This document shows, piece after piece, positions 22,864-26,126 of a stretch of 64,000 nt of DNA; the stretch's first letter is position 1, and every line of letters starts with the position of its first letter. The notes beneath the pieces were generated by a model. The model was not told the origin of the DNA, did not search any database, and saw nothing but the letters and a program-made list of their open reading frames with translations. The position numbers and the translations under genes are program-made. The DNA is from an uncultured Allomuricauda sp. (lineage in GTDB: Bacteria > Bacteroidota > Bacteroidia > Flavobacteriales > Flavobacteriaceae): the NCBI GenBank assembly GCA_965117065.1, contig OZ220751.1:1789807-1853806 (forward strand), read 5' to 3'.

Positions 22864-23901
22864 CTAAATTTTAAATGTCTTTATGAAATTGGCAACCAAA
22901 ACAGGAACAGGAAACGTATGGATATTATTCCACGGGATTCCCCCTTCAGATACTTCATCCCCCTCCAAAATCCAGAACCTTGTATGCAACTGTTGGTGTG
23001 AGAGTTTGTGAACAACCGGTTCCTTATTATACAAGGTTATTGCTTTTATAGAATTAAACTTGACTTTACCATTCAAAGCTTGGGTCAGCTCTTCTGTTTC
23101 CAACAGCTTATCCGACTCTAATAAGGGAAATTGGTACAAGTTTTGCCAAATACCTTTGCCTTTTCGCTGCTCTAGGATAGTTTTTCCATTTGAATCCAAA
23201 ACAACCAGGTAATTAAAATAGCGAGCCCTTACTTTGACTTTGTTTTGTTTAATAGGAAAACGCTCCACTTTATCTTCTTTTAAGGCTACACAACCAGTGC
23301 TTAACGGACAGGCTGGGCAGTTTGGACTTCTGGGTGAGCACTGAATAGCGCCAAATTCCATAATCCCCTGATTGTAATCCCTGATGTTCTCGATATCCAT
23401 AACTTCACGGGCCAATTCTTTAAAATATTTGACCCCTTCGGTACTATTTATGGCTAGGTCCGCTCCAAAATATCTGGATAGCACCCGATATACATTACCA
23501 TCCACCACAGGTTCTGGCAAATCAAAACATATGGAAGCGATAGCGCTGGCCGTATAATCCCCAATTCCTTTTAGTGCTTTCAAACCTTTATACGTATTGG
23601 GAAACTCTCCCCCATAATCATTCACCACTATTTTTGCTGTTGCATGAAGGTTTCTTGCCCGAGAATAGTAGCCTAGTCCTTGCCATAGCTTCAAGATTTT
23701 TTCCTCTTCTGCCTTAGCTAGATCGAACACCGTAGGAAATGCTTCCAAAAACTTGTGATAATAAGGCATTCCTTGAGCCACTCTGGTTTGTTGCAACATA
23801 ATCTCGGAAAGCCAAATTTTGTACGGATCTTTGGTGGCTCTCCAGGGCAAATCCCTTTTGTGCAGACCGTACCACTTTAGAATTTTCAGGGAAAAAGACA
23901 T
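22864..23901 (-). CDS. mutY: A/G-specific adenine DNA glycosylase
   Basis: 345 aa with HhH-GPD, an Fe-S cluster motif (CxxxxxxCxxCxxxxxC) and a C-terminal NUDIX-like domain. Confidence 0.9.
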   Translation of the reverse strand: MSFSLKILKWYGLHKRDLPWRATKDPYKIWLSEIMLQQTRVAQGMPYYHKFLEAFPTVFDLAKAEEEKILKLWQGLGYYSRARNLHATAKIVVNDYGGEFPNTYKGLKALKGIGDYTASAIASICFDLPEPVVDGNVYRVLSRYFGADLAINSTEGVKYFKELAREVMDIENIRDYNQGIMEFGAIQCSPRSPNCPACPLSTGCVALKEDKVERFPIKQNKVKVRARYFNYLVVLDSNGKTILEQRKGKGIWQNLYQFPLLESDKLLETEELTQALNGKVKFNSIKAITLYNKEPVVHKLSHQQLHTRFWILEGDEVSEGGIPWNNIHTFPVPVLVANFIKTFKI

Positions 23902-23982
23902 CTAAGAAATTAATAAGAGTTAAATGTAGCAGTTTATATACTTAAAATTAAAGGCTTTAAACGAAAGATTAATTTTAATTTT

Positions 23983-23990
23983 TATATTTG
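23983..23990 (+). promoter_or_regulatory. Bacteroidetes-type -7 promoter element (TAnnTTTG) upstream of the HU gene
   Basis: TATATTTG lies 33 nt upstream of the HU ATG, in an AT-rich spacer. Confidence 0.35.
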
Positions 23991-24023
23991 CAAGCCTAAA
24001 AATTTAGAAAATAATAATACGAA

Positions 24024-24314
24024 ATGACGAAAGCAGATATTGTAACTAGAATCTCAGAAAAACTAGGTATAGAAAAAGGAGACGTACAAGCAACGGTTGA
24101 ATCTTTTATGGAAGAGGTAAAATCGTCCTTGGAAAATGGTGATAATGTTTATTTAAGAGGTTTCGGAAGCTTTATCATAAAGACGAGAGCGGAGAAAACA
24201 GGTAGAAACATTTCAAAGAATACAACAATTAAAATTCCTGCACATAATATTCCTGCATTTAAGCCGGCCAAAGTATTTGTGGAAGGAGTAAAAAGTAACG
24301 TACAAGTAAAATAA
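24024..24314 (+). CDS. HU-family DNA-binding protein
   Basis: 96 aa with the canonical HU/IHF fold motifs (GFGSF...R...G.N). Confidence 0.9.
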   Translation: MTKADIVTRISEKLGIEKGDVQATVESFMEEVKSSLENGDNVYLRGFGSFIIKTRAEKTGRNISKNTTIKIPAHNIPAFKPAKVFVEGVKSNVQVK

Positions 24315-24341
24315 GATAACTAACACTAAAGGAATAGCCAT

Positions 24342-24431
24342 ATGCCGAGTGGTAAAAAAAGAAAAAGACATAAGGTAGCAACCCATAAGCGTAAAAAGCG
24401 CAGAAGAGCTAACCGACACAAGAAAAAGTAG
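24342..24431 (+). CDS. 29-aa highly basic peptide, candidate ribosomal protein bS22 (AURKAIP1/COX24-like)
   Basis: Not in ORF track (<60 aa). MPSGKKRKRHKVATHKRKKRRRANRHKKK. It is followed immediately by a terminator hairpin. Confidence 0.5.
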   Translation: MPSGKKRKRHKVATHKRKKRRRANRHKKK

Positions 24432-24449
24432 TTGTTGCAACTACTTTTT
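24428..24449 (+). terminator. Rho-independent terminator after HU / small basic peptide genes
   Basis: GTAGTTG-ttg-CAACTAC followed by TTTTT. The stem overlaps the stop codon of the 29-aa ORF. Confidence 0.6.
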
Positions 24450-24578
24450 CATTTTACACCTATACGTTCTTTGACATAGAGATTCAAAAGAGAATTTCAA
24501 TCGGTAATAAACCGATTCTACATATTGTTTAATCATTTATCCCTATAAACAAATTGGGATAAATTAAAATCGATTCAG

Positions 24579-26126
24579 GTGAATAGAGAATTAATCGTTA
24601 GATCTAGTCCTGATGCAGTCGATTTTGCCTTACTAAAGGATGGAAAACTTATAGAATTACACAAAGACGAGGATGACAACAAATTTTCCGTAGGGGATAT
24701 CTTCCTAGCCAAGATAAGAAAACCCGTTACCGGCCTAAATGCGGCTTTCGTAAATGTAGGTTATGAAAAAGATGCATTCCTGCACTATCATGACCTAGGT
24801 CCGCAACTGTCCTCCATGTTGAAATTCATTAAAAAAGTTAGAACGGGAAAGCTAAAAGACTTTTCCCTCAAGGATTTTCCATTTGAAAAAGATATAGACA
24901 AGAATGGCACTATTAACGAAGTTATTAAGGCCAATCAGTCATTATTGGTACAGATTGTAAAAGAACCCATTTCCACCAAAGGGCCAAGGATAAGCTCCGA
25001 GCTTTCCTTTGCGGGCCGATATTTGGTCATGGTTCCATTTTCTGATCGCGTTTCCGTTTCACAAAAAATAGGGAGCAAGGAAGAAAAGGATAGGCTAATA
25101 CGACTTGTAAAAAGTATTAAGCCCAAAGGATTTGGGGTAATTATCCGTACCGTTGCAGAAGGCAAAAAAGTTGCAGAACTTGACAAGGATCTTCAAAACC
25201 TGTTGTCCAAATGGACAACAATGAGCAAGAAATTGCAAAGAGCGCCCCATCCATCAAAGGTGTTGGTAGAGCTTAATAGAGCTTCGTCCATACTCAGGGA
25301 TGTGTTCAACGATTCCTTTACAGGAATCCATGTTGATGATGAAACGCTTTATAATCAAATCAAGGATTATTTGCATGAAATCGCACCTCAAAAGGAATCC
25401 ATTGTAAAACACTACTCCGGATCCGCCCCAATTTTCGAAAAATTTGGGATTGAGCGTCAAATCAAAACCTCGTTTGGCCGTACCGCCTCCATGAGTAAAG
25501 GGGCCTATCTTGTTATAGAACATACCGAAGCACTTCATGTAATTGATGTGAACAGTGGTAACCGTTCCAACAAGGCCAAAAATCAAGAGGACACCGCTTT
25601 AGAGGTAAACCTATTGGCTGCTAGTGAAATTGCCAGACAATTAAGGTTGCGCGATATGGGAGGAATTATTGTGGTCGACTTCATTGACATGACCAAAGGT
25701 GATCACAGACGAAAACTGTTTGACCACCTAAGAGAAGAAATGAAAGACGACCGTGCAAAGCACAAAATTCTTCCTCCAAGTAAATTTGGATTGGTCCAGA
25801 TTACACGCCAAAGAGTTCGCCCAGAAGTGAACATCAAGACCAGCGAGGTAAACCCGAATGGTTCTGGTGCAGAAGTTGAAGCACCTATCGTTTTGGTCGA
25901 CAAGATTAATGTTGATCTTGAGCGAATCATGAAAGGCAACCACAAGGACAATGGCATTATTCTGAACATTCATCCTTTTATTGCGGCCTACCTTAACCAA
26001 GGATTTCCATCACCACGTTTTAAGTGGTTTTTGGAACATAAAAAATGGGTCAAGATTCAACCTAGGGATGCTTATACATACCTTGAATACCGTTTTAAAA
26101 ACAAGGACGGTAAAACAATTAGATAA
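24579..26126 (+). CDS. rng: Ribonuclease E/G family endoribonuclease (Rng-like)
   Basis: 515 aa with GTG start, an S1 domain (FSVGDIFLAKI) and the RNase E/G catalytic core (VIDVNSG, DFIDM). Confidence 0.9.
   Translation: MNRELIVRSSPDAVDFALLKDGKLIELHKDEDDNKFSVGDIFLAKIRKPVTGLNAAFVNVGYEKDAFLHYHDLGPQLSSMLKFIKKVRTGKLKDFSLKDFPFEKDIDKNGTINEVIKANQSLLVQIVKEPISTKGPRISSELSFAGRYLVMVPFSDRVSVSQKIGSKEEKDRLIRLVKSIKPKGFGVIIRTVAEGKKVAELDKDLQNLLSKWTTMSKKLQRAPHPSKVLVELNRASSILRDVFNDSFTGIHVDDETLYNQIKDYLHEIAPQKESIVKHYSGSAPIFEKFGIERQIKTSFGRTASMSKGAYLVIEHTEALHVIDVNSGNRSNKAKNQEDTALEVNLLAASEIARQLRLRDMGGIIVVDFIDMTKGDHRRKLFDHLREEMKDDRAKHKILPPSKFGLVQITRQRVRPEVNIKTSEVNPNGSGAEVEAPIVLVDKINVDLERIMKGNHKDNGIILNIHPFIAAYLNQGFPSPRFKWFLEHKKWVKIQPRDAYTYLEYRFKNKDGKTIR

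Follow-up and report, generated by a model that had tools for sequence, protein, structure and literature searches.

We describe a small open reading frame (ORF) that lies between hup, the gene for an HU-family DNA-binding protein, and the gene for an RNase G-like ribonuclease of the Rne/Rng family. It begins with ATG and ends with a TAG stop codon at 24429-24431 on the plus strand of the window, by which we mean the whole stretch of 64,000 nucleotides that was analyzed. Its product is the peptide MPSGKKRKRHKVATHKRKKRRRANRHKKK. An A-rich spacer separates the ORF from HU, a hairpin followed by T-runs overlaps its 3' end, and a further stretch of about 150 nt leads from this hairpin to the ribonuclease gene (Table 1).

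The peptide contains 10 lysines, 7 arginines and 3 histidines, so that 20 of its 29 residues (69%) are basic. Set against the 529 ATG-initiated ORFs in the window that have 20 aa or more, its fraction of K/R/H residues (0.69) is an extreme outlier, the runner-up reaching 0.43; a small ORF of such composition is not a chance feature. The first-pass annotation of this DNA had pointed to a 29-aa poly-basic ORF after HU with about 70% K/R/H, starting 28 nt past the HU stop codon and ended by its own hairpin and T-run. That description holds in its particulars: the length is exact, the basic fraction is 69%, the gap measures 27 nt with the ATG beginning at the 28th base, and the hairpin has a perfect 13-bp stem with T-runs after it.

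Table 1. Features of the hup-bS22 locus, in window coordinates
Feature	Position	Strand	Basis
TAnnTTTG match TATATTTG, 33 nt before the HU start codon	23983..23990	+	Window sequence and relatives
hup, HU-family DNA-binding protein, 96 aa	24024..24314	+	PF00216, E 4.8e-28
A-rich spacer, HU stop to bS22 start, 27 nt	24315..24341	+	Window sequence
bS22 gene (Bacteroidota type; assigned with high confidence), 29 aa plus TAG stop	24342..24431	+	ORF, PDB match, synonymous-only variation, metagenome family
Intrinsic-terminator-like hairpin and T-runs	24422..24455	+	Folding, 3'-end comparison
Rne/Rng-family ribonuclease (RNase G-like), outside the bS22 gene	24579..26126	+	TIGR00757, E 7e-121; PF10150, E 2e-100

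Match to ribosomal proteins placed in structures

When the peptide was compared by phmmer with the sequences of all PDB chains, three matches were returned in total: chain 5 of 7JIL (“ribosomal protein S22”), which is identical at 28 of 29 positions over residues 1-29 (E 4.2e-11); chain 10 of 9I5V, the bS22 of P. gingivalis (E 2.7e-8); and chain V of 8FMW, the “30S ribosomal protein bS22” of Borrelia (E 2.1e-6). A profile version of the search found the same type of protein with E-values between 5e-16 and 3e-14. The peptide had been put forward as a candidate ribosomal protein bS22 from the letters of the DNA, and the matches to these three chains bear out that proposal. The best of them is a full-length match to a bS22 of the Fjoh_1533 type, a chain modelled in ribosome density. 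The peptide also has the features of that type, being very basic, within the range of about 28-31 aa, and carrying the motif MPxG[KR]KRK..K..THKRKK...NRHKK. All 18 columns that are invariant in an alignment of four sequences are present in it.

The structures behind these matches have been described in some detail. 7JIL is the 70S ribosome of F. johnsoniae, and its chain 5 is Fjoh_1533, a protein of 30 aa formerly annotated as hypothetical. Jha et al. modelled it de novo in previously unassigned density of the 30S subunit, between h44 and h45, where it touches H70 of the 23S rRNA, and gave it the name bS22 on account of its superposition on the bS22 of M. smegmatis (PMC7797042). The F. johnsoniae protein was later seen in 70S initiation complexes and was absent from isolated 30S subunits, and the authors of that study speculate about an interplay with IF3 or with the 50S subunit (PMC13000457, 2026). 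A bS22 has also been modelled in the ribosome of P. gingivalis (PMC12123416) and in that of Borrelia burgdorferi, where its gene was unannotated (PMC10618245).

The bS22 of Bacteroidota is thus an established ribosomal protein, already known rather than a candidate. From the 97% identity to the structurally placed F. johnsoniae protein, we infer a ribosomal location in the present organism as well. Its binding to the ribosome may be conditional, given the absence of the F. johnsoniae protein from isolated 30S subunits (PMC13000457). In the PDB, the same 30-aa sequence goes by two names, “30S ribosomal protein S22” and “50S ribosomal protein L38” (entries 7JIL, 9OZ9, 9OZN, 9OZZ and 9P0E). The L38 label looks like a deposition error, because bL38 is a different protein, Fjoh_4981, with a DUF4295 domain (PMC7797042).

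Family models and the actinobacterial bS22

Neither PF08213 (COX24_C; gathering threshold 23 bits) nor NF047430 (ribo_bS22, the actinobacterial equivalog; cut-off 34 bits) matches the peptide at E <= 10, so that by these models it belongs to neither family. The bS22 of M. smegmatis, which served as a positive control, reaches 46.2 bits with PF08213 and 62.6 bits with NF047430, and a PDB search with it as the query finds chains of mycobacterial bS22 and of mS38. With PF08213, the P. gingivalis-type sequence attains a sub-threshold 11.7 bits (E 0.26) and the Borrelia bS22 has no match; neither of the two matches NF047430. Both models, then, detect the actinobacterial/mitochondrial type only and miss all three structurally validated sequences from Bacteroidota and Borrelia. 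The HMM search for PF08213 / bS22 that the first-pass annotation had recommended as a check is accordingly negative, though the identification it was meant to check is right.

Comparisons in the other direction give the same picture. Searched to E <= 10, a profile built from four Bacteroidota/Borrelia sequences finds its own three PDB sequences only and picks up neither mS38 nor actinobacterial bS22 chains, and BLASTP of the window peptide against the M. smegmatis bS22 yields E = 3. The initial label “bS22 / AURKAIP1-COX24-like” therefore survives in its first half: bS22 stands, and kinship in sequence with AURKAIP1/COX24 does not, in view of the HMM, BLASTP and profile results. On the same three grounds (HMM, BLASTP and the small profile, all negative), we rejected “COX24-like” as the label of a sequence family.

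On its sequence, the peptide is a member of the Bacteroidota/spirochaete bS22 family. The name that it shares with the founding, actinobacterial bS22 reflects a common position in the structure, homology between the two being unproven. Going by published structures, the peptide corresponds in position to actinobacterial bS22, mS38 and eL41, but homology to them cannot be demonstrated from sequence. Convergent evolution of the bS22 types has been suggested by the authors of the P. gingivalis structure (PMC12123416). Automated pipelines tend not to name the peptide because it lacks detectable homology to actinobacterial bS22/mS38. The exact peptide is absent from a collection of 15 billion proteins, though it is encoded in 79 of 79 complete related loci, and the collection likewise lacks peptides of the F. 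johnsoniae type with 29 or 30 aa; a length floor or skipped ORFs are possible reasons.

The probable transcription unit and its neighbors

Two sets of loci were used for comparison. The first consists of relatives, one genome per species, located by a scan anchored on the neighboring ribonuclease; the best 80 loci, with 86-96% ribonuclease identity, come from Flagellimonas/Allomuricauda (up to 96%), Arenibacter, Maribacter, Croceitalea, Eudoraea, Croceivirga and other genera. The second is a broad sample of metagenome contigs matched by a degenerate DNA pattern that specifies codons 1-19 only, and it comprises at least 120 loci.

Among the relatives, HU (92-100% identity) lies directly upstream of bS22 in all 76 Flavobacteriaceae loci with enough sequence. 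A single TAnnTTTG box, which we take to be the Bacteroidetes-type -7 promoter consensus, stands 31-41 nt before the HU ATG in 74 of 74 related loci; the same box occurs inside HU or the spacer in two of the 74. The box in the window, TATATTTG, is likely the promoter of a hup-bS22 transcript, and a two-gene transcript is likely because the promoter box precedes HU and almost never bS22. A scan with a sigma-70-type promoter model gave 4 weak matches against 2.9 expected, the model being uninformative for a Bacteroidota genome.

A Shine-Dalgarno-like AAAGGAA (24328-24334, with GGA at 24331-24333) is found 8 nt before the ATG at 24342. An AGGA, GGAG or GAGG core is present at -20 to -4 in 27 of 80 related loci, mostly from Flagellimonas/Allomuricauda and some of them with AAGGAG, and such a core stands upstream of none of the 38 long ORFs in the window. 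Shine-Dalgarno sequences are generally lacking in Bacteroidota; in this group, those that precede the genes for bS21 and bS18 have been shown to act in regulation. The core upstream of bS22 is not kept across all genera and may be incidental.

The transcript would end at the hairpin that overlaps the bS22 stop codon. Its perfect 13-bp stem (24422-24434 paired with 24438-24450) encloses a 3-nt loop, TTG, and has a predicted stability of -15 kcal/mol (z = -6.2), which none of 200 shuffled sequences equalled. One T-run, TTTTT at 24445-24449, closes the 3' arm, and after C and A a second one, TTTT, follows at 24452-24455. The 5' arm consists of the last three lysine codons and the stop codon of bS22. 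The 80 loci have 71 distinct 3'-end sequences, and all but two of these retain the hairpin and T-run in an unchanged position; the lower, ORF-coded part of the stem is fixed, and the apical part varies in a compensatory manner (for example GTAGTTG/CAACTAC, GTAGTC/GACTAC and GTAGTTA/TAACTAC).

A consensus terminator scan of 23850-24650 reported no terminator, most likely because the stem absorbs the first T-run and leaves a tail with too few T. The sole Rfam match at E <= 1 was to a plastid psbA 3'UTR family on the minus strand (21.5 bits against a gathering threshold of 56.8, E 0.58); being sub-threshold, it was rejected and taken as a chance match of a generic hairpin.

Beyond the terminator, three conserved blocks precede the ribonuclease gene: 24464-24477 (ACGTTCTTTGACAT), 24501-24517 (ATCGGTAATAAACCGAT, a hairpin) and 24523-24535 (TATTGTTTAATCA). 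Across 79 distinct sequences from several genera, conservation is at least 90% for ACGTTCnTTGACAT, right after the terminator, for a GGT...ACC stem and for TGTTTAATC. The region between terminator and ribonuclease has no Rfam match. For the ribonuclease gene, this region may serve as a promoter of unusual type or as a 5' leader with a regulatory role.

In the broad sample, the same surroundings recur with some variation. Among the metagenome matches listed, HU adjoins bS22 in 51 of 86 loci, while in 27 of 86 it is 200-1100 nt away on the upstream side, separated from bS22 by a single ORF of about 170-290 aa. The ribonuclease is downstream of bS22 in 65 of 75 loci with enough sequence, again among the matches listed, and the order HU..bS22..ribonuclease is found in 45 of the 52 listed that have room on both sides. 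The inserted ORF has a hydrophobic N-terminus and ends 1-105 nt before bS22, and many of the contigs that carry it are Bacteroidota-like but not from Flavobacteriaceae (L084, L091, L092, L097, L100, L101, L113, L121, L126, L132, L162, L176, L195, L200 and others). In seven further loci (L127, L135, L141, L182, L189, L196 and L199), an HisG-like ORF (M..KVLKLGLPKGSLQE..) lies upstream and HU is not nearby.

This arrangement invites the question of whether the small ORF acts through its RNA. A leader peptide followed by a hairpin, about 150 nt before a ribonuclease gene to which it stays linked in most of the listed metagenome loci, could form a transcription attenuator of that gene, and a TAnnTTTG box between the bS22 stop/terminator and the ribonuclease occurs in only 1 of 74 related loci, so that read-through could contribute to its expression. 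Leader peptides, however, are usually constrained at a few codons only, whereas this one is invariant across genera. Moreover, no alternative anti-terminator pairing was seen, the minimum free energy structure having an ensemble frequency of 0.92, and ribosome structures contain the peptide in near-identical form. The ORF could serve in both roles at once, but attenuation is unneeded to account for it, and we consider it very unlikely as its explanation.

Still less probable, to a degree that makes it close to negligible, is a protamine-like peptide that acts on DNA together with HU and is nucleoid-associated rather than mainly ribosomal. The support for such a role is the adjacency to HU, with probable co-transcription in all 76 related loci, and a charge so extreme would permit binding to any nucleic acid. 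The adjacency is nevertheless broken by the inserted ORF in the metagenome loci just described, and in three independent structures, from Bacteroidota and a spirochaete, a near-identical protein is found in a specific and ordered pocket of the rRNA.

We give a low probability to a further idea, namely that the order hup - (optional membrane/TPR-like ORF) - bS22 - RNase G-like gene, which is kept widely in Bacteroidota, ties the supply of bS22 to the maturation of the small subunit. The 5' end of 16S rRNA is trimmed by RNase G in E. coli, and bS22 adjoins the 3' minor domain (h44/h45). Alternatively, under the same low probability, the Shine-Dalgarno-like AAGGA(G) of the Flagellimonas clade would be an autoregulatory element, as for the bS21 of Flavobacteriia, sensed by ribosomes with a free anti-Shine-Dalgarno sequence.

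Conservation of the reading frame

The identical 29-aa peptide is encoded in 79 of the best 80 Flavobacteriaceae loci, and in the lone exception the contig ends 135 nt upstream of the ribonuclease. At the DNA level, the 80 ORFs (window included) comprise 74 distinct versions. Of the 31 sites that vary, 26 are third positions of codons and 5 are first positions, where arginine codons switch between AGR and CGN; second positions do not vary. The amino-acid sequence is the same in all 80 ORFs, and none of them has an indel. All 31 variable sites are synonymous, and the frame is under strict purifying selection. Each of the other five frames of these 90 nt yields between 26 and 74 peptides, and stops interrupt two frames on the minus strand. 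The first-pass annotation had held that a frame unconserved in relatives would count against a gene; with one peptide from 74 DNA versions, the comparison favors a protein, and the frame is kept as such in relatives.

Two minus-strand ORFs of 75 and 31 aa, at 24213-24440 and 24326-24421, overlap the 3' end of HU and bS22. Over the bS22 portion, the three minus-strand frames give 26-74 distinct peptides, with stops in 10 of 80 and 76 of 80 loci for two of them, and these ORFs look like shadow ORFs rather than genes.

The conservation extends well beyond the relatives. Among the metagenome matches listed, the 118 complete ORFs are without exception 28-36 codons long, and the tail, which lies outside the search pattern, keeps the motif R-x-[RK]-x-N-R-H-K-K, with 0-4 basic residues after it. 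Roughly 65 distinct peptides are represented among the matches listed, and the bS22 sequence family is large and widespread.

A chance open frame in the A-rich 3' UTR of the HU mRNA, where only the RNA (the terminator and its surroundings) would be functional, might have been expected of an ORF that is very short, of low complexity, A-rich, overlapped by a terminator hairpin and without a Pfam or NCBIfam match, but it is effectively refuted by variation that is synonymous in the bS22 frame only, by a spacer that ranges from 18 to 32 nt among relatives next to an ORF that has no indel, and by 97% identity to a chain modelled in cryo-EM density, and its probability is negligible.

Taken with the structural matches, we are highly confident that the ORF is the bS22 gene of a Flagellimonas/Allomuricauda-like flavobacterium, and the gene appears to be the second cistron of a hup-bS22 transcript.

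Proposed role

In the model that we favor, transcription would start at the TAnnTTTG box upstream of HU, pass through hup into bS22 as the second cistron, and end at the conserved terminator of hairpin and T-run. The 29-residue basic peptide would then form a short helix inserted between h44 and h45 of the 16S rRNA, at the subunit interface and by the decoding center, and its C-terminal lysines would reach H70 of the 23S rRNA to make an extra intersubunit contact. This placement has been seen for the F. johnsoniae protein and is expected here on the strength of 97% identity; a stabilizing or bridging role for the bS22 of this organism would follow from it. In near-identical proteins, a basic helix fills the h44/h45 pocket and C-terminal lysines touch the 23S rRNA (PMC7797042, PMC13000457, PMC12123416, PMC10618245). 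In Bacteroidota, bS22 genuinely belongs to the ribosome, and it probably does so throughout the phylum.

In the ribosome, bS22 adjoins both the decoding center and the aminoglycoside-binding site on h44. Deletion of the M. smegmatis bS22, the counterpart without recognizable sequence kinship, raises susceptibility to kanamycin via a changed h44 pocket (bioRxiv 10.1101/2023.03.31.535098), an effect shown in that species only. The site of bS22, its conditional absence from free 30S subunits and a possible interplay with IF3 are already published, and the main value of the present analysis lies in annotation. Pfam and NCBIfam models are blind to the Bacteroidota/spirochaete type, and ORF-length cut-offs hide the gene, which can go uncalled or be called “hypothetical”, as happened in F. 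johnsoniae, P. gingivalis and Borrelia; this gap would be closed by an HMM built for the type.

Comparison with known systems

The closest known counterpart is the bS22 of F. johnsoniae (Fjoh_1533; 7JIL chain 5, and 9OZ9, 9OZN, 9OZZ and 9P0E), likewise from Flavobacteriaceae, of the same size and with the same C-terminal lysine run. The single difference among the 29 aligned residues is R21 here versus A21 there. The window peptide is one residue shorter, with three C-terminal lysines versus four in F. johnsoniae (PMC13000457), and the host genus differs, being Flagellimonas/Allomuricauda-like by 96% RNase G identity.

More distant members of the same family share the motif given above and are unannotated or “hypothetical” in their genomes. 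The bS22 of P. gingivalis (9I5V chain 10), from another order, is 83% identical and sits in the same rRNA pocket; that of Borrelia burgdorferi (bb0822, 8FMW chain V), from another phylum, is 71% identical and again occupies this pocket. The Borrelia gene starts with GUG and was found by translated search only, and bottom-up mass spectrometry missed its product (PMC10618245).

The bS22 of actinobacteria (M. smegmatis; 5O5J, 5O61 and 5XYU) and its counterparts mS38/AURKAIP1/Cox24 resemble the window peptide in being about 30-33 aa long, basic, helical and lodged in the h44/h45 pocket (PMC7797042, PMC12123416, PMC10618245), but a sequence relationship to it is undetectable by HMM, BLASTP or profile. 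A last parallel is offered by eL41 of eukaryotic cytosolic ribosomes, a tiny basic helix that occupies the equivalent pocket of the small subunit and bridges the subunits (PMC10618245, PMC12123416). It differs in being eukaryotic, about 24-25 residues long and free of a bend, and the likeness to bS22 drawn here concerns the pocket.
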